Virus record (IMG/VR): IMGVR_UViG_3300008952_003220
Location: 32,001-96,000 of that record
Source: a virus
Direction: 5' to 3' (one strand)
Length of the DNA stretch: 64,000 nucleotides
Shown here piece after piece: positions 31,985-51,537 of this stretch. The translations under genes and the position numbers were made by a program. The notes beneath the pieces are model-generated. The model worked only from the letters and a program-made list of their open reading frames with translations, did not search any database and was not told the origin of the DNA. Position 1 is the first letter of the stretch, and every line of letters begins with the position of its first letter.

Positions 31985-32015
31985 TTTAACTTTCTTAAGA
32001 ATGTTATAATATTGA

Positions 32016-41634: not shown

Positions 41635-41721
41635 GCGGGCATGGTGTAATTGGTAGCCACAACGGGCTTAAAACCCGTTGATCGTATGATCGTCTCGGTT
41701 CGAATCCGGGTGCCCGTACCA
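41635..41721 (+). tRNA. tRNA-Leu(TAA)
   Basis: Cloverleaf with ACGGG-CT-TAA-AA-CCCGT, long variable arm, TTCGAAT and CCA. Confidence 0.95.
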
Positions 41722-42283: not shown

Positions 42284-42784
42284 ATGCACCATCTTAGCTC
42301 TCTAGTCTCAGATTCTCATGAAATCTGGCACACGGGCTCGGGAAATCAGATACGGTTTGAACAGATAATGACTCACATAACATCTCATGCGCTGCTTGGT
42401 GGAAGAGTATTTATTGGAACAGATAGCATGTTAAGATCTGATTCTTGTGTGTTTGCTACAGCTATCTGTCTTCACGGAAGCACGGGACAGTCTGGCGGAA
42501 GATATTTTTTTAAAAGAGAGACACAAAAAGATAGAGACTATACTAATCTCAATTCTAGAATGCTAAAAGAAGTTCAAGAATCTATTGAGATGGCAGGAAA
42601 AATCGTCGATTGCTCACCAAGCGCAGACATTGAGATACACATTGATGTTGGAATTAGTGAAAGGTCTAAGACAAGAAATCTTGTTGAGTCTCTAAGGGGC
42701 TGGGCTGCAGCAGCAGGTTTTTCATGTAGAGTAAAGCCTTATGCCTGGGCATCTGCATCTGTTGCAGATAGACATACTAAGTGA
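42284..42784 (+). CDS. RNase H-like YkuK/DUF458 family protein
   Basis: IGTDS, EIHIDVG and KPYAWASASVADRH. Confidence 0.85.
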   Translation: MHHLSSLVSDSHEIWHTGSGNQIRFEQIMTHITSHALLGGRVFIGTDSMLRSDSCVFATAICLHGSTGQSGGRYFFKRETQKDRDYTNLNSRMLKEVQESIEMAGKIVDCSPSADIEIHIDVGISERSKTRNLVESLRGWAAAAGFSCRVKPYAWASASVADRHTK

Positions 42785-43306: not shown

Positions 43307-43636
43307 ATGATTAGCACAGATGACTTTCTTAAGACAGTTATAGACAGAGCAGTCAAGAAGGTAATTTGCATGTCACTAGAGATTCCTGAAGATGATTTCA
43401 ATCCAGGAAAAGCAGAATACTATGCTGTTTGGAAAAGAAAGATAGTAGGTGACAAATCGCTTTCTAGATTAAAGATACGGCGGGACAGGTACCAAGATTT
43501 TTATGATGTGCCTATGAATCTAATTGAAGACGAGGGTCTTCTTTGGGACGACGTCATAGAATATCTTATTGAACATAGATCTAAAAAGATCTCACCTAAA
43601 GATTTTATGCTAGAGAATAGATTGATCTATTCATAA
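43307..43636 (+). CDS. hypothetical protein
   Basis: 109 aa with GAGG RBS. Confidence 0.7.
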   Translation: MISTDDFLKTVIDRAVKKVICMSLEIPEDDFNPGKAEYYAVWKRKIVGDKSLSRLKIRRDRYQDFYDVPMNLIEDEGLLWDDVIEYLIEHRSKKISPKDFMLENRLIYS

Positions 43637-43657
43637 TTTTAAATATATTATTGACTT

Positions 43658-43771
43658 TCCTGATAGAGCAGCTTGAGAATCCCGCTATAGTCTCGCTGCA
43701 TAGTCTAAGAGCGCGGGACTCTTTGTACTGTATCAGGACCCGCAGGGAGGCACGGGGTCACAGGTGTCTCA
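43658..43771 (+). ncRNA. candidate structured RNA: multi-helix domain plus 35-nt pseudoknot
   Basis: TCCTGATA/TATCAGGA, TCCCGC/GCGGGA and GCAGC..GAGA/TCTC-GCTGC helices in a GC-rich intergenic island; pseudoknot at 43737-43771. Confidence 0.6.
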
Positions 43772-43787
43772 CACTTAAGGGTATGTT

Positions 43788-44120
43788 TTGAGTAAAAAAA
43801 GAAATATAAAGGAAGGGCAGATCTATCTTGTTAGAACAGCAGCAAGCGTCAATGTTCTAAAGAAGATTATTAAAATAGATGATTTGGAAAAAGGATGGTA
43901 CACAGGGTGTCTTGTTTCTGAAGAAGATAAGCAGGCCCTTATCAAGCAGCAAGTCGCTTATTTAAAACATGAGAAGCCGAGTGAATGTATATCCTGGATA
44001 TCCGAATCAGATATAATAAAACGCGTGTATAATAAAAAAAATAGTGGTACAATAAAGGGTACAAAGCGAAAAACAAGAAGGCGTGTATATGATCCGAATT
44101 CTAGGAAAGATTCCAAATAG
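43788..44120 (+). CDS. SH3-like basic protein
   Basis: IKEGQIYLV. Confidence 0.55.
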   Translation: MSKKRNIKEGQIYLVRTAASVNVLKKIIKIDDLEKGWYTGCLVSEEDKQALIKQQVAYLKHEKPSECISWISESDIIKRVYNKKNSGTIKGTKRKTRRRVYDPNSRKDSK

Positions 44121-44709
44121 GATTACAGTCGCATGCAGCGGCGGTCCTGATTCAATGGCTATTGTTGATTTTTTGATTAAAGGTAGAAAGAATGTAACTG
44201 TCGCATACTTTAATCACGGAACAGATCACGGCTCTGAGGCTGCTGGGTTTGTTTTTGATTTCTGCAAAAAAAGAGATATCCCAATCATTTCAGGAAGTAT
44301 GACAGCCCCAAAGACAAGTGATAAATCCTGGGAAGAGCACTGGCGAGATGAAAGATATAGATGGCTAAGCTGTATTGCAGGAGACGTCATAACAGGTCAT
44401 CATCTCGATGATTCTGCTGAATGGTATCTGTTTACTTCTTTGCATGGAAACGCGAGATTGATTCCGTATAGAAGAGACAATGTAGTCAGGCCATTTTTGA
44501 CAACTCCGAAGTTAGAGTTTATAAGCTGGTGCGATAGAAATAGTATTGAATATCTTAGGGATCCTTCTAATGAGAATGAGAAATTCATGAGATCTATTAT
44601 TAGAAATAAAATAATGCCCCAATGCCTAAGAGTGAATCCTGGATTGAGAAAGGTCATTAAGAAAAAAATTACTACTGAATATAAAGAAAAATGGGAGAAT
44701 AAAAATTGA
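44083..44709 (+). CDS. tilS: tRNA(Ile2) lysidine synthetase, catalytic domain only
   Basis: SGGPDS PP-loop, NHG, RDERY, GHHLDD, RPFL, DPSN and RSIIR. Confidence 0.88.
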   Translation: MYMIRILGKIPNRITVACSGGPDSMAIVDFLIKGRKNVTVAYFNHGTDHGSEAAGFVFDFCKKRDIPIISGSMTAPKTSDKSWEEHWRDERYRWLSCIAGDVITGHHLDDSAEWYLFTSLHGNARLIPYRRDNVVRPFLTTPKLEFISWCDRNSIEYLRDPSNENEKFMRSIIRNKIMPQCLRVNPGLRKVIKKKITTEYKEKWENKN

Positions 44710-45737
44710 AAATCAATAAGCTTATAGAGGGATTGTGCTTTGATGATGTTTTGCTGCTACCGCAGTATAGTGAGATCTTTTCTAGAAAAGAAACTGACAC
44801 GTCAGTTCAAGTTAAGAATTTAGGTGATCTTGGGATCCCTGTTGTTTCGAGTCCAATGGATACAGTCACTGAGTCTTCAATGGCAACTGCAATGAGTCAG
44901 CTAGGCGGTCTAGGAATTATACACAGGTACAATACTATTAAGGACCAGTCGCTGATTGTTAAAAAGTCAATTGACAAAGGGGCAGATTTGGTTGGTGTGG
45001 CAGTTGGCGTTTCTGGTGACTATGTTGATCGGGCGCTGTCTGCTTGCAAGGCAGGAGCAAAGGTTATATGTGTTGACATTGCACATGGCCATCACGCTCT
45101 CATGCGATATGCTTTGAAAACCCTTCGGAACACGTTTGGCGATGATATTCATATCATGGCTGGAAATGTTGCTACTGCTGCTGCATTTAATGATCTTTCT
45201 GACTGGGGTGCTGATAGCATTCGTGTTGGTGTTGGTGGTGGGTCTATCTGCTCTACCAGAATTCAGACAGGTCACGGTGTTCCTACGTTGCAGTCTATTA
45301 TTGATTGCTCCTATTCTGATAGGGACTCGCTGCTCATCGCTGATGGTGGTATTAAGAATTCTGGAGATATTGTTAAGTCGCTTGCTGCAGGCGCAGATCT
45401 TGTCATGCTCGGCTCTATGCTTGCTGGAACAACTGAAGCCCCTGGAGAGATTATCTATTTAGATGGGGGTAGGTGCAAGGCATATAGGGGAATGGCTAGT
45501 AAAGATGCTCAAATTGACTGGAGAGGGCATACAGCTTCAATTGAGGGAGTTTCCTCAACTGTCCCACTAAAAGGGCCAGTTAAAGATATCATTGGTGAGA
45601 TTATAACTGGTGTTAGAAGCGGAATGTCCTATAGCGGGGCTAAGACACTTAGAGAGCTGACATTTAAATCTAGGTTCATCAGACAGACTTCAGCGGGGTC
45701 TGTTGAGAGCTCCACACATATTTTAAAAAATGGATGA
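44706..45737 (+). CDS. IMPDH/GMP reductase family enzyme without CBS domains (probably GMP reductase)
   Basis: [26 protein letters not shown] and YRGMAS; no Arg-Tyr dyad in the flap. Confidence 0.88.
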
Positions 45738-45945
45738 TGAAAAAGATGTTTCCCCTGGAGATCTTGTTGAGATAACTTGGTCAAACTTTGGAAAGGGGCT
45801 TGCTCTTGTCTTAGATGTTTTCTCTGCTAAGAATGTTAGCTCCGGTGAGATAAATTTTATAGGAAGGGCAATTTGCAGCGGGTCTATCATTAATTTTATG
45901 CCTGGCTGTCACGTCCATTTATTAGCAACATCTAGTGTAAACTAA
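45730..45945 (+). CDS. small SH3-like protein
   Basis: VSPGDLVEI. Confidence 0.55.
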   Translation: MDDEKDVSPGDLVEITWSNFGKGLALVLDVFSAKNVSSGEINFIGRAICSGSIINFMPGCHVHLLATSSVN

Positions 45946-45972
45946 GCTAATAAGAGATATACTAATGATCAT

Positions 45973-46049
45973 GGGGAGTTAGCTCAATCGGTCAGAGCAA
46001 CGGTCTCATAAACCGTAGGTTCTGGGTTCAAGCCCCAGGCTCCCTACCA
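45973..46049 (+). tRNA. tRNA with CAT anticodon (Ile2 or elongator Met)
   Basis: ACGGT-CT-CAT-AA-ACCGT and CCA end; class A promoter at 45935; no initiator features. Confidence 0.92.
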
Positions 46050-46063
46050 ATTATGTCATTAAG

Positions 46064-46861
46064 ATGAAAAAAAAAGAAAAGATAGACCCTAGCTGGAAAG
46101 AAGTGCATTATCCAATCTGCGATGTGCCCTTGGCAGCTGATGAGCAGAAGCTAGTCTTAGAAGAGATGAGATATCTTTATAGTCTTGTAGAGCACTTTAA
46201 TAATGAAATAGCCTCTCAAAGATACCGAAGTATGTCGATGACTGAAATCATAGAAGATCTCAATCTAGATCACAATAGCATCGTTATTGATCTTGGGACT
46301 TTTGTTGGCCAGCAGATAGAAGACCTTGCAGAGGCTAATGTTGAAGTTCACGCATTTGAGCCCCATCCAATATTTTCAAAATCTCTTGAAGAGAGGTTCT
46401 CTTCATATAAAAATGTCATCATAAATCCAATTGCAGCCGGTGCAGTTGATGGTGAGTTTGATCTCTTTTATCAGAGAGCTAGTGACGATTTTAATGGGGG
46501 AGCCTCACTTGTAATTCACAAGATGGATACACACATAGACTTTTTTAAAAAGGTTGAGAGGGGTCCCGAAGTCAGTCACAAGGTCAGGTGTGTTGATATT
46601 TCAGACTATATTTCTTCTCTTGATAGGCAGATTGACATTTTAAAGATAGATGTTGAAGGTTTTGAATACATTATACTTTCTCGACTAATCGAGACGGGAA
46701 TGATTGATAAGGTAGACCGTATCTTTTTTGCCGATCACCGCGATGATTTTTTCGCAATAGAGTGGTTTAGAATTGCAATTAAGACTATTAGAGAGGCATC
46801 AAATACACCTAAAAATATTGAGAAAATATTTTCTAGGCATACAGCTCATATTGAAAAATAG
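46064..46861 (+). CDS. FkbM family methyltransferase
   Basis: IDLGTFVG, AFEP and LKIDVEGFE. Confidence 0.9.
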   Translation: MKKKEKIDPSWKEVHYPICDVPLAADEQKLVLEEMRYLYSLVEHFNNEIASQRYRSMSMTEIIEDLNLDHNSIVIDLGTFVGQQIEDLAEANVEVHAFEPHPIFSKSLEERFSSYKNVIINPIAAGAVDGEFDLFYQRASDDFNGGASLVIHKMDTHIDFFKKVERGPEVSHKVRCVDISDYISSLDRQIDILKIDVEGFEYIILSRLIETGMIDKVDRIFFADHRDDFFAIEWFRIAIKTIREASNTPKNIEKIFSRHTAHIEK

Positions 46862-46921
46862 CATTTTCTTTTTTATCATTTGGCTGTATAATATAATAAT
46901 CGTTATGGAGAAATTTAATTA

Positions 46922-47605
46922 ATGATCAACTTACATGGAAAAGATGGGGTTATGAACTTTCTCATCCGTCGTTACGGATATGAGTCATATCTAGAAATTG
47001 GTGGGCAACCTGCTTCTGAGAGAGCAACATACCATAAGGTTAAATGCAGAACAAAGGACTCTATTGATCCAGACCCAAATGCTGCAGCAACTGATCTTCC
47101 CAGTGGGATGACACACCATTTTATGATGTCTGATGAGTTCTTTGAAAAAAATGCTGGTAAGAAAAAGTTTGATCTTGTTTTTATTGATGGGTACCATGAG
47201 CATCAACAAGTTCTTAGAGATATCACTAATTCTTTAGAATGCTTGACAGAGAATGGAACAATTGTTCTCCACGACATGCTTCCTCCGACGAGAGATCTCG
47301 AGGCAATAAATAGAACTGGGACAGGCTGGCGCGCATTTGCAGACCTAAGAGCATCTCGAGAAGATCTCACCATGTTCACATGTCCGCCGCCGTGGGGAAC
47401 AGAGGACGGACTAGGTGTTATTAGAAGAGGAAAGCAGGATATTTTTACCAAGGATGTTGAATATGACTATGATTTTTTTCTAGAGAATAGAAATCAATTA
47501 ATGAATATTATTACGCCTACAGAATTTTTAGCGAATGTAGGTGTTATCGTTATTCAGTGTCCAGAGTGCAGCTCAAATATCATCCTTCAGTCAAATGAAC
47601 AATAA
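46922..47605 (+). CDS. class I SAM-dependent methyltransferase
   Basis: YLEIG, FDLVFIDGYH and IVLHD. Confidence 0.88.
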   Translation: MINLHGKDGVMNFLIRRYGYESYLEIGGQPASERATYHKVKCRTKDSIDPDPNAAATDLPSGMTHHFMMSDEFFEKNAGKKKFDLVFIDGYHEHQQVLRDITNSLECLTENGTIVLHDMLPPTRDLEAINRTGTGWRAFADLRASREDLTMFTCPPPWGTEDGLGVIRRGKQDIFTKDVEYDYDFFLENRNQLMNIITPTEFLANVGVIVIQCPECSSNIILQSNEQ

Positions 47606-47696
47606 GAATCGTAATATTTTAGATTAAGATTAAACAAATTTTAAAATAATGATAATTTACCAAGATGCTCTATAAAGAGCTAAGGAGAGAAAAAAC

Positions 47697-48071
47697 ATGC
47701 TACAAAAAGCTAAAGATCTTTGGGCAAGCTGGAAGGTTCAGCTTAGTTTTGTTGGAGGCGCACTTGTTGTTTCCGCTGTTTGGGGAACGTGCACATACGA
47801 GCCCCCAGAAGCTGATCTAGAGGTTTCTGCAACGACCACTGATAATCAGGACGGTACTGCCAATACAACATCAACAGAAGCTGATGGTGAGACCACTACG
47901 ACCACTACGACATCTGACGGGACTGGGACCACAACCGGTAACAATACAACGACAGATGCCAATACCACCACAACTACTGGAGATAATACATCTGCTAATA
48001 CCGGTGATACCACTACCACTACCACTACTACTACAACTGGTAATGGGACAACTGAGAGCACAGATAATTAG
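47697..48071 (+). CDS. membrane-anchored Thr-rich low-complexity protein
   Basis: N-terminal hydrophobic segment followed by poly-Thr/Asn/Gly. Confidence 0.75.
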   Translation: MLQKAKDLWASWKVQLSFVGGALVVSAVWGTCTYEPPEADLEVSATTTDNQDGTANTTSTEADGETTTTTTTSDGTGTTTGNNTTTDANTTTTTGDNTSANTGDTTTTTTTTTTGNGTTESTDN

Positions 48072-48081
48072 ATAAAAAATG

Positions 48082-48111
48082 ATCTCACCTCTTTTTAAAA
48101 AGAGGTGAGAT
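48082..48111. repeat. perfect 30-bp palindrome
   Basis: ATCTCACCTCTTTTT|AAAAAGAGGTGAGAT. Confidence 0.9.
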
Positions 48112-48123
48112 TAAAAATCCCCC

Positions 48124-48158
48124 AAACCGCAGGGAGGCACGGGTTAACAGGTGCCTCA
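48124..48158 (+). ncRNA. second copy of the 35-nt pseudoknot motif
   Basis: AAACCGCAGGGAGGCACGGGTTAACAGGTGCCTCA, 30/35 identical to 43737-43771. Confidence 0.65.
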
Positions 48159-48199
48159 TTTTTTATTTATCTTTTTCTTCTTTCTGTAAATAATTATGA

Positions 48200-49894
48200 A
48201 TGGAAACAGCTAGTGAGAAAAAAGTGAGCAATATATCAGACCTTAGCCTCTTAATTAGAATGATGTTGCAAGAGCAGACAGAGAGAATACCCACTTCTAG
48301 AAGACAGGAGCGCACTGGGATCCCTGCTAAGCCCATTAGAACATACATACAATTTGTCAACCAGATAGTTAGAGGTAGTACTAAAAGACCGGTCGTGGTT
48401 TACGCATATAATGATAGAACTATGGCAGCCTTTTCAGATGACATTCAAAGAATTGCACAGTGGTCTGAAAGATTTGAACAACGAGGTATTGAGTTCTTTA
48501 AGATTAACACAGATTCAAGAAATCCAAGTGTAAGAAGGGCGTATGAAGACTATATCAATGAAACAGAGGTCAGGTATCAGCTACCAAAGATTCAAGTCTG
48601 GAGAGCCGGTCAGCCAGTTTTTATTGACTCTGGAAACATTTCAACATCTGCTACCCTAGAAGCCCTGCGCAGTCTAGTATACAATCAAGGAGATCCTCAT
48701 CCTGATATCGACAATGTTGTATTTTCAAGATACGGTGATGACGGTGAACAGAGATGGAAGGCTGCTGAGGGATATATGTTTGATCCCAATGCCGACGACC
48801 TTAGTGTTATTCAGAAACCAGACCCTCAGAGACAAGTGAATGTTGAGGCTGATTTAGACTCTGATCTATCTACGAGCCCTGCCTCTGATCTATCTACGAG
48901 CCCTGGGACCCCTGAGGCCCCAGCCGTTACAAATATCTCATTCTCATATGATGATGGTAAAGCTGTTGTCAGTGTGATCACGAATGCTGCGGTCACTGAA
49001 GACAAGATCAGTTTTTACAGGCTAGAAAGACAATTAATTATTGATCTGGAAGGCACCACCCTCCCCGCAGACATAGCTCAGCTGGCAGGTGACGGTGAGC
49101 TGATCGATCGGATTGAGGCCGTGGATTTTGCAGATGGTGGGATATTTACTCGCGTGAGAATTTATTCTGGACGTGCAGAACCTATTCTACCTCCCCCAGA
49201 GGTCGCGGACGGGATAATCAGAGTCTCTGTTGATCCCATACTTTCTGATCGATGCATGACCGATCCACCTGAAGAGCAGTATTTTCAAACCGAGTATGAG
49301 GGTACCGAGGTAGTGCTTAGCTGGTCTCCCTCTGCTGGGTCTGCAAGCGGATGTGAAACAGCTGTGCGCTCCGATGGGTCAATAGCACACGCTAGGTATT
49401 TTTATTTTACAGAAACCAATCGTTTTGGCTACCGCGCACCAGGAGACACGGATATGATTATGCTTAGCTCGCGTGCTAGCCTGGAGTCCATAATGGACAA
49501 TACAGTTCCCCGGGGCTATGCAGTACCCTGGGCAGATGACAGGGAAGAGATCTTGGGCTCAGCAAGGGCTTCTGCTAGCAGCGGTAGCGAGTCAGATCAC
49601 TCACCAGATGTCATACGAATTGTAGCTGGCTATGATTATGAAACACTTAGCTCACCATCCCTTAGCTACGGAAGAGATAGCGGAGGCAAGTATATCAGAC
49701 TTCCTAATGTTTCTGCTGGGAGTGACAGACAGGATGCACGGATGAGTACCGCCCTAGATGCGAACGGAGTGACCGACGCTCTCCACGATGCTGGTCACAC
49801 AGACTACGCAGGAGAGCCTCATCCCCGGCTGGAACAAGGAGCCGCCGCGTATCCGAGAGCAAACCACATAAGAGTCTACAAGATAGAAGAATAA
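48200..49894 (+). CDS. tagged multidomain protein (thioredoxin-like region plus AMIN-like domain)
   Basis: LSLLIRMMLQE; FFKINTD..LPKIQVW; VTNISF...QLIIDLEG...IDRIEA...TRVRI. Confidence 0.6.
   Translation: METASEKKVSNISDLSLLIRMMLQEQTERIPTSRRQERTGIPAKPIRTYIQFVNQIVRGSTKRPVVVYAYNDRTMAAFSDDIQRIAQWSERFEQRGIEFFKINTDSRNPSVRRAYEDYINETEVRYQLPKIQVWRAGQPVFIDSGNISTSATLEALRSLVYNQGDPHPDIDNVVFSRYGDDGEQRWKAAEGYMFDPNADDLSVIQKPDPQRQVNVEADLDSDLSTSPASDLSTSPGTPEAPAVTNISFSYDDGKAVVSVITNAAVTEDKISFYRLERQLIIDLEGTTLPADIAQLAGDGELIDRIEAVDFADGGIFTRVRIYSGRAEPILPPPEVADGIIRVSVDPILSDRCMTDPPEEQYFQTEYEGTEVVLSWSPSAGSASGCETAVRSDGSIAHARYFYFTETNRFGYRAPGDTDMIMLSSRASLESIMDNTVPRGYAVPWADDREEILGSARASASSGSESDHSPDVIRIVAGYDYETLSSPSLSYGRDSGGKYIRLPNVSAGSDRQDARMSTALDANGVTDALHDAGHTDYAGEPHPRLEQGAAAYPRANHIRVYKIEE
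48859..48905 (+). repeat. 24-bp in-frame tandem duplication (SDLSTSP x2)
   Basis: CTCTGATCTATCTACGAGCCCTG occurs twice. Confidence 0.9.
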
Positions 49895-50301: not shown

Positions 50302-50378
50302 GCGCCCTTAGCTCAGCTGGATAGAGCATCGGTCTTCTAAACCGAGGGTCGCAGGTTCGAGTCCTGCAGGGCGTACCA
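50302..50378 (+). tRNA. tRNA-Arg(TCT)
   Basis: TCGGT-CT-TCT-AA-ACCGA and CCA. Confidence 0.95.
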
Positions 50379-50383
50379 TATAT

Positions 50384-50460
50384 TCCCCCTTAGCTCAGCT
50401 GGTTAGAGCACCGGACTGTTAATCCGGGTGTCGTTGGTTCAAGTCCAACAGGGGGAGCCA
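50384..50460 (+). tRNA. tRNA-Asn(GTT)
   Basis: CCGGA-CT-GTT-AA-TCCGG, G73 and CCA. Confidence 0.95.
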
Positions 50461-50715: not shown

Positions 50716-50791
50716 GCCACCGTAGCTCAGTTGGTAGAGCAGCTGATTTGTAATCAGCCGGTCGGAGGTTCGAGTCCTCTCGGTGGCTCCA
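50716..50791 (+). tRNA. tRNA-Thr(TGT)
   Basis: GCTGA-TT-TGT-AA-TCAGC and CCA. Confidence 0.95.
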
Positions 50792-50802
50792 TTGAGACTT
50801 AA

Positions 50803-51537
50803 ATGCTAATTTGCCCACAAAGAAAGTTTATCTTTTTTAAGCCCCTAAAGTGTGCAGGGACATCAGTCGAGCATGCCCTGTATGCTGCCACAGGTCCAGA
50901 TGCATTGTGCACAGGTAGCTCCTCTGGTAGCGGTGAGATTGAGTATGGCTCAAGAAATAATGAGCTCTTAGTTAACGGTCAACAGGCTATGCGATTTGTA
51001 CAGCACACACCGCCGGGCCTTTTTTATTCTAGAGTCGCCGACCCTGACTGGTATTATGACTATGCTAACATTACAATTGTAAGAAATCCATGGGATGCCC
51101 TGGTTTCTTTTTACTGGTGGTGTGTGAGAAGAGCGGGCACAGCAGAGGAGTGGATAATAAAACCAGATGATTCGCCAGGTGATATGGTAAAAAAGTTTGA
51201 GACTGTAATGACAATGCCTGCGATATATTCGAATGATCTAATTGCTCATGAAATCGGGCTGGGTGCTTCTGTCTCTTCAGCTTTTATCTTTTTTCATACA
51301 CTGAATAATCTATTTATTGATGACAGGATTGACTGTTACTTACATTTTGAAAGCTTAGAAAGAGACTTTAGTGATCTGTGCGCAGAGCTTCAAATTAATG
51401 ATGCGAAATTGCACAAGCACAAGACCAGTCAGAGAAAGATGAAGTCTGATTATAGAAAGTATTACAATTCCTGGATGAGAAATATAGTTGCAGAAAAATT
51501 TTCCAGCTATATCAAAAAGTTCAACTATAGCTTTTAA
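50803..51537 (+). CDS. sulfotransferase family 2 protein
   Basis: FIFFKPLKCAGTS, VRNPWDALVSFY and FESLERD. Confidence 0.85.
   Translation: MLICPQRKFIFFKPLKCAGTSVEHALYAATGPDALCTGSSSGSGEIEYGSRNNELLVNGQQAMRFVQHTPPGLFYSRVADPDWYYDYANITIVRNPWDALVSFYWWCVRRAGTAEEWIIKPDDSPGDMVKKFETVMTMPAIYSNDLIAHEIGLGASVSSAFIFFHTLNNLFIDDRIDCYLHFESLERDFSDLCAELQINDAKLHKHKTSQRKMKSDYRKYYNSWMRNIVAEKFSSYIKKFNYSF

Follow-up and report, generated by a model that had tools for sequence, protein, structure and literature searches.

A conserved pseudoknot RNA at gene ends of uncultured marine phages, tentatively read as a knotted intrinsic terminator

The DNA analyzed here, a stretch of 64,000 nucleotides that we call the window, covers positions 32,001 to 96,000 of the IMG/VR virus record IMGVR_UViG_3300008952_003220, and it contains two copies of a 35-nt element that belongs to a large RNA family, absent from Rfam 15 and present in many uncultured marine phages. 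The compensatory changes behind each of its two crossing stems identify the element as an H-type pseudoknot RNA. It sits at the ends of genes, on the coding strand, and in about 55-60% of its copies it runs into a U tract. Our preferred reading, which we hold tentatively and at slightly under an even chance, is that of an intrinsic terminator or attenuator embedded in a pseudoknot.

Both window copies are on the + strand, in intergenic sequence and 4.4 kb apart: copy 1, GACCCGCAGGGAGGCACGGGGTCACAGGTGTCTCA, at 43737-43771 and copy 2, AAACCGCAGGGAGGCACGGGTTAACAGGTGCCTCA, at 48124-48158, as a preliminary description of this DNA, made from its letters, had reported. A covariance model built from the copies of other phages scores them at 54.8 and 59.9 bits, respectively. 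They have in common the 17-mer CCGCAGGGAGGCACGGG, which has two exact occurrences in the window and likewise two in the entire 134.7-kb virus record (itself estimated to be 45% complete) if up to two mismatches are tolerated. It was matched in none of 100 shuffles, so chance is not the expected source. In copy 1 the first stem (P1) pairs 43737-43741 with 43755-43759 (5 bp, -8.5 kcal/mol), loop L1 (GCAGG) spans 43742-43746, the second stem (P2) joins 43747-43753 to 43764-43770 with one G-U pair (-10.1 kcal/mol), and G18 (43754) and loop L3 (ACAG, 43760-43763) complete the knot. In copy 2, P1 pairs 48125-48128 with 48142-48145 (3-4 bp), L1 lies at 48129-48133 and P2 is made by 48134-48140 with 48151-48157 (-12.8 kcal/mol). 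The copies differ at five nucleotides, as had been described: positions 1/23 are G-C in copy 1 and A.A in copy 2, the P1 pair 3/21 goes from C-G to A-U, and position 31 takes part in a G-U pair in the P2 of copy 1 and in a G-C pair in that of copy 2. Directly 3' of copy 2 stands the U tract TTTTTTATTT (48159-48168, + strand; an A, then TTTTTT), and its P2 together with this tract has the anatomy of an intrinsic terminator. No U tract follows P2 in copy 1. Copy 2 fits the terminator form of the element, and copy 1 would be a leader or structure-only form.

We gathered 184 unique instances, filtered for at least six P2 pairs and at least three P1 pairs. Their consensus has N3-C4-C5 pairing with G19-G20-N21 in P1 and G11-C17 pairing with G28-C34 in P2, with nearly invariant loops, C7-A8-G9-G10 (CAGG in 180 of 184 copies) and A-Y-A-G. 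These are the stems first proposed from the two window copies, and they covary across the family. In 96 distinct short copies, the pair N3:N21 is AU in 45, CG in 31, UA in 9, UG in 6, GC in 1 and unpaired in 4; this set was found by the exact 17-mer, and its core is therefore invariant by construction. A second sample was drawn by neighbouring protein, as 80 loci with relatives of a gp32-like protein that are 54-100% identical to one another, and the covariance model from the first set was applied to it. P1 is absent from that model, which makes the covariation of P1 independent of the alignment method. The model gave 69 real matches in 54 of these loci, and in the resulting 59 distinct rows 99.5% of the cells pair. 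The observed pairing values were reached by 0 of 500 shuffles, and pairing falls to 30-55% when the partners are slid, so that the covariation first noticed between two copies extends to further homologues. Changes on both sides are found at eight of the ten pairs, two of which rest only on L331, a weak reverse-strand row that is spurious.

The 184 instances include P2 variants such as GAGGCAC/GTGCCTC, GAGGCAT/ATGCCTC, GGGGCAC/GTGCCCC, GAGGCCT/AGGCCTC, AAGGCAC/GTGTCTT and CAGGCAC/GTGCCTG; pairs 11:34, 12:33, 16:29 and 17:28 change on both sides, and in P1 a flip of C4-G20 to G4-C20 is seen twice. G-U pairs outnumber A-C mismatches by 72 to 1, from which it follows that the sense-strand RNA is the folding molecule. 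Beyond the stems, positions 6 and 18 are G/G in 158 instances, A/A in 25, A/G in 2 and never G/A, and in 22 of the 25 A/A cases L3 reads AUCAG. Three covarying junction classes thus emerge (G6/G18 with ACAG, A6/A18 with AUCAG, A6/G18 with AUGG). Such covariation is what a junction contact in a true knot would give, although it may also stem from a single clade. Inserted hairpins of up to about 50 nt occur in L3 only, and leave AYAG and the 3' strand of P2 in place.

Such changes bear on whether the conserved letters could work at the level of DNA, as a promoter, recombination site or site of protein binding, instead of through a folded RNA. We regard this alternative as very improbable. Exact identity over 17-35 nt between diverged phages, and between copies that flank accessory genes, would favour recombination, and promoter-like matches accompany 21 of 124 copies versus 14 of 248 coding controls. 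However, both stems carry compensatory changes with the strong G-U bias just given, the 3' strand of P2 is kept at a variable distance, promoter-like matches are missing at 103 of the 124 copies, and the knot leaves just 16-33 nt before the start codon. In the region scanned, 22 promoter-like matches were found against 14.8 expected. Some of them, sigma-70-like (9/12) and consensus matches only, lie 5' of copy 1 at 43622-43680 (+ strand); if they are real, copy 1 may be located in a 5' leader.

The exact core is present on at least 122 viral contigs (exact scan). Among the viral matches listed, CCGCAGGGAGGCACGGG is followed within 70 nt by AGGTG[CT]CT[CT], the 3' strand of P2, in 133 of 136 occurrences. 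About 596 Gb of cellular genomes yielded 120 loci with CCGCAGGGAGGCACGGG, only two of them with the full motif and the rest chance matches in GC-rich genomes. A degenerate scan of the same genomes returned 32 loci, of which five are real; these are phage-like loci in metagenome-assembled genomes (MAGs), and the two that we inspected show the phage gp32-to-RecA context inside the MAG. The family is phage-only. A gp32-knot-RecA phage segment lies inside L368, a 2.85-Mb MAG 'chromosome', either as a prophage-like insertion or through chimeric assembly. Carrier phages encode pieces of a family A polymerase, a gp32-like single-stranded DNA-binding protein (SSB), RecA and a 5'-3' exonuclease; their complete genomes measure about 180 kb. 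None has a close relative in culture: the closest cultured RecA is 32.5% identical. The number of copies per genome is low, with 1-5 good copies in five large records and two in that of the window.

The preliminary description could not assign the motif to a known family, and our searches agree. At the gathering threshold, Rfam 15 found only five tRNAs in the whole window. With E relaxed to 10, neither copy had a match on the motif, and 16 related loci gave three weak unrelated matches at E up to 1. A 37-nt copy had no blastn match in 50,697 GenBank phage records, and a full-text literature search for three 14-mers of the core, complemented with word searches, returned no description of the element. 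The knot may be listed in the supplementary tables of a catalogue of 10,006 viral candidate RNAs (PMC10690425).

The gap from the stop codon to the motif is 6-13 nt in 102 of 125 copies, and the next start codon comes 16-33 nt after the motif in most cases. The stop codons are TAA (59), TAG (53) and TGA (5). The base that follows P2 is an A in 99 of 127 copies, and the leader further 3' is 72% A+T with little G. All 69 matches in the gp32-anchored sample are on the gp32 strand and 3' of the gp32-like gene. More generally, the upstream gene is gp32-like in 55 of 127 copies, while the downstream genes are varied (RecA-like 40, FKBP 19, lipoprotein-like 10, a 67-aa family 7, others 35, none called 15). 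In the stretch from the gp32-like gene to recA, the motif separates accessory genes from each other: the complete record G003 reads gp32, knot, 413-aa gene, knot, Hc1, knot, 172-aa gene, degenerate knot, FKBP, RecA. Locus L154 has four copies within about 1 kb, and six viral loci carry two copies 275-540 nt apart. Two other accounts were set aside. Stop-codon read-through is uninformative, since the frame is open through the motif in 89 of 117 cases, as expected for a GC-rich 35-mer, and a CsrA-type GGA site is ruled out by the replacement of A12 with G in 16 of 184 copies.

What follows P2 points to termination. T is found at +3 to +7 after P2 in 51-74% of 127 copies, over a background of about 25-29%, it drops back after +8, and even where leaders are long (54 copies) the tract keeps its place relative to P2. 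A simple rule recognizes a U tract in 78 of the 127 copies, 11 of which also have a hairpin over the Shine-Dalgarno sequence, and in the wider set it is present in 110 of 184; by 3' context, 67 copies have a U tract only and 13 a Shine-Dalgarno hairpin. Moreover, the knot is interchangeable with ordinary terminators. Among the 26 gp32 loci without a model match, at least 16 have a GC-rich hairpin and a T run directly after the stop codon, and the remaining ones include one divergent knot, one that is cut and two without a spacer. A quick tree of gp32 mixes knot and terminator states, supported branches forcing eight changes or more, and close relatives differ in state, as in the clade uniting L293 and L295 (terminator) with L296 and L307 (pseudoknot). 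The gp32-like gene of the window phage itself (L279 2185-2225, outside the window) ends in an ordinary hairpin with a T9 terminator and not in a knot. Just after the gp32 stop codon, L290, L311, L314 and L347 show a long hairpin whose big loop contains a C run (TTCCCCC...), which may be another conserved element.

The likeness to intrinsic terminators is one of parts and of place: a 7-bp GC-containing P2 hairpin with a U tract, a few nucleotides after the stop codon, in the slot that ordinary terminators occupy in sister phages. Sigma-70-like promoters precede gp32 and a T7-type RNA polymerase was not found in G000, G002 and G003, so the user of the signal would be the RNA polymerase of the host. 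In the mechanism that we propose, the element would act in cis, as part of the coding-strand mRNA, and would fold into a compact H-type pseudoknot with a purine-purine contact between positions 6 and 18 at the junction. Where the upstream gene ends, P2 and the U tract would form a Rho-independent terminator or attenuator, onto whose hairpin P1 and the conserved loops would fold back. These could then set the share of polymerase that continues into the next gene, or they could produce a knotted 3' end to be recognized or protected. Lastly, copies would double as crossover points for gene swapping. The observations establish the fold, its strand, the restriction to phages, the place at gene ends, the U tract and the exchange with ordinary terminators; we infer that the element terminates transcription, what P1 and the loops do, and that recombination uses the copies.

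Several observations weigh against it. There is no U tract in 45-47 of 127 copies and in 74 of 184 (about 40%), copy 1 of the window among them. P2 closes a loop of at least 10 nt, which exceeds that of usual terminators and pairs with the 5' flank; a simple terminator scan did not call the knot. P1 is equally long in copies with and without a U tract. Two copies (L040 and L072) are followed by a separate ordinary terminator, and 13 have, over the 3' end of P2, a hairpin that sequesters the Shine-Dalgarno sequence. If each of the four G003 copies in one operon terminated well, recA would be silenced, which means that termination would have to be partial. A further difficulty is conservation. 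The terminators of sister phages vary freely, whereas the loops and stems of the knot are nearly fixed across diverged phages, so that more than a hairpin and a U tract must be under selection; termination alone does not explain this. The invariant loops point to an additional recognition step, and the extra selected function could be the tuning of read-through, a recognized or protected 3' end, or the binding of a ligand or protein.

One way to accommodate the copies that have no U tract is to see the knot as an element of RNA stability or processing, blocking 3'-to-5' exonucleases or marking an RNase E-type cut in the A/U-rich stretch that follows, and thereby uncoupling an abundant upstream mRNA from the downstream genes. 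Its location just after stop codons, the A at +1 followed by U-rich single strand, and its compactness, with a P2 of about -10 to -13 kcal/mol plus P1, are all consistent with such a role. But the ordinary hairpins of sister phages would serve equally well with no need for sequence conservation, and the proposal overlaps largely with ours, a terminated 3' end being a capped end too. Judged from the sequences, we find it unlikely as a separate explanation. Of the functions offered by the preliminary description (a ligand- or protein-binding RNA, a nuclease-blocking 3' cap, or an antitoxin-like decoy), a role at the 3' end of genes fits best, given the anchored U tract, the position after the stop codon and the terminators of sister phages. 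The near invariance of the loops leaves room for ligand or protein binding.

The decoy is the function that found no support. Type III antitoxin RNAs (ToxI-like) contain a pseudoknot of about 35 nt, similar in size to this one. However, they come as tandem arrays, and copies of our element are never in tandem: genes always lie between them, over 4.4 kb in the window and 275-540 nt at the closer pairs. No endoribonuclease toxin appeared as a neighbour in Pfam scans of the contexts examined.

Ligand binding would make the knot a riboswitch-like aptamer for a small molecule or ion, installed on two platforms, one transcriptional (P2 and the U tract) and one translational (a Shine-Dalgarno-hiding hairpin over P2). 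The size and architecture are those of small H-type pseudoknot aptamers: preQ1-I, SAM-II and guanidine-III aptamers have 30-50 nt, two stems and conserved nucleotides in the junction loops, as here, although the stem and loop proportions and the sequences differ and no Rfam match was obtained at E up to 10 at either site. The nearly invariant loops (CAGG and the AYAG-type L3), the three covarying junction classes, the two kinds of 3' context and the variable hairpins inserted in a peripheral loop would all be at home in an aptamer. There is also precedent for one embedded in a terminator. In the accessible part of its description, the hydroxymethylpyrimidine pyrophosphate (HMP-PP, thiS) riboswitch is, like the knot, a very small conserved element whose core overlaps the stem of an intrinsic terminator (PMC6478431); on that same partial account, it differs from the knot, which is restricted to phages, has no coherent gene association and gave no Rfam riboswitch match at the sites scanned. 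Indeed, the genes downstream of the 127 copies have no common pathway, those of the window being a PP-loop/GMP-reductase operon and an unknown 564-aa gene. The knot is tied closer to the upstream stop than to the downstream start. Its absence from cellular genomes, save for the five phage-like MAG loci, would be unusual for a metabolite sensor, and the Shine-Dalgarno-hairpin class is found mostly in one gp32 clade with little variation. Altogether we consider a riboswitch an outside chance. A more elaborate version, of comparably low probability, would be an aptamer within the terminator that senses a small molecule, an ion or a conserved host factor. Read-through out of the SSB gene, towards recA and newly acquired accessory genes, would then depend on the condition of the infected cell; the junction forms would be specificity variants, and the identical copies recombination sites.

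Protein binding is suggested by the strongest gene association of the family, that with gp32-like genes. A gp32-like SSB, or a host protein, could bind the knot, spread over the A/U-rich leader and repress the translation of the next gene or block termination, in the manner of the T4 gene 32 operator. The T4/T2 operator resembles our element in being a small H-type knot linked to an SSB gene and followed by A/U-rich unstructured RNA, but its sequence is not known to be related to that of the knot. An autoregulatory pseudoknot of T4 gene 32 is described in PMC10690425, according to which it has no Rfam model. However, our motif is 3' of the gene and never 5', with 0 of the 69 matches in the 700 nt upstream of the 80 gp32-like genes, and it also occurs at unrelated genes; being 3', it is not the T4 gene 32 operator. 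The motif is missing at many gp32 relatives, and the window phage has its two knots elsewhere. T enrichment is bound to positions +3 to +7 after P2 and does not spread along the leader. A cold-shock protein was rejected as universal partner, as it was found in none of three genomes. An operator is thus, in our judgement, somewhat less likely still than a stability element.

Among known systems, and by analogy, the knot works most like an intrinsic terminator and like the PeSL (promoter-early stem-loop) cassettes of T4-type phages. In the accessible part of their description, PeSLs are short conserved cassettes that carry a terminator stem-loop, lie on either side of small non-essential genes and are thought to mediate modular shuffling (PMC2839356). 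Against that partial account, the repeats of the knot likewise bracket accessory genes in a variable region, as in the four copies of G003 between gp32 and recA and in L154. But the knot has no regular sigma-70 promoter, given the promoter-like matches at 21 of 124 copies versus 14 of 248 controls and a space of 16-33 nt that is too short for one. It is also a pseudoknot and not a plain stem-loop, and its carriers, with their family A polymerase pieces, RecA and genomes of about 180 kb, are not T4-type. With the same 35 nt on the borders of each accessory gene, the copies probably serve as crossover points.

If the pseudoknot-embedded terminator is real, marine phages would be using a sequence-conserved, knotted terminator as a standard module of gene ends, and hundreds of members with unusually clean covariation would constitute a new RNA family. 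At 35 nt, the element is small enough for structural and biochemical work. It would provide a handle on the expression ratios around the replication and recombination genes of large uncultured phages, and on how accessory genes are inserted and exchanged. Invariant loops would mean a specific recognizer, which, once found, could reveal a new regulatory principle.

The preliminary description had also placed each window copy directly 3' of a strong hairpin. Both hairpins are predicted, at 43689-43720 (AGTCTCGC...GCGGGACT) and at 48082-48111 (a perfect 13 bp), both on the + strand, but the association does not extend to the family: the first is specific to the window phage and outside the family consensus, and most listed relatives have no such hairpin and a stop codon 6-13 nt upstream. 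The hairpin at 48082-48111 has an A run 5' and no U run 3' on the + strand. It reads as a terminator on the - strand only, where the T run is, and both adjoining genes are on the + strand.

On the + strand, copy 1 is followed by a gene for an unknown 110-aa protein (43788-44120), a PP-loop ATPase (PF01171, 44083-44709) and an IMPDH/GMP-reductase family protein (PF00478, E 3e-104, 44706-45737); the last two (44083-45737) resemble a nucleotide-metabolism module directly 3' of the knot. Copy 2 lies between a 124-aa protein with a Thr/Asn-rich tail (47697-48071) and a 564-aa protein (48200-49894), both encoded on the + strand and neither with a family match. Proteins with long Thr/Asn/Gly-rich low-complexity tails end just 5' of the knot in three unrelated contigs, the window, L102 and L040. 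Five phage tRNA genes, all on the + strand, are found among the genes around both knots: Leu-taa (41635-41721), Met-cat (45973-46049), Arg-tct (50302-50378), Asn-gtt (50384-50460) and Thr-tgt (50716-50791). The intervals 42284-42784, 46064-47605 and 50803-51537 hold an RNase H-like protein (PF04308), two methyltransferases (FkbM-type and Methyltransf_24) and a sulfotransferase-like gene.

Two minor features of the flanks recur in the family. A run of 5-10 C lies 1-4 nt 5' of P1 in a minority of copies, namely copy 2 of the window (48115-48123), L016, L020, L022, L024, L057, L066 and L072, and also in listed copies whose L3 carries large inserts; we found no partner with which it would pair. 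Finally, several downstream genes, in L154, L046, L120, L241, L028 and others, have CA-repeat leaders, CACACACACA, placed after the U tract and ahead of the Shine-Dalgarno sequence.

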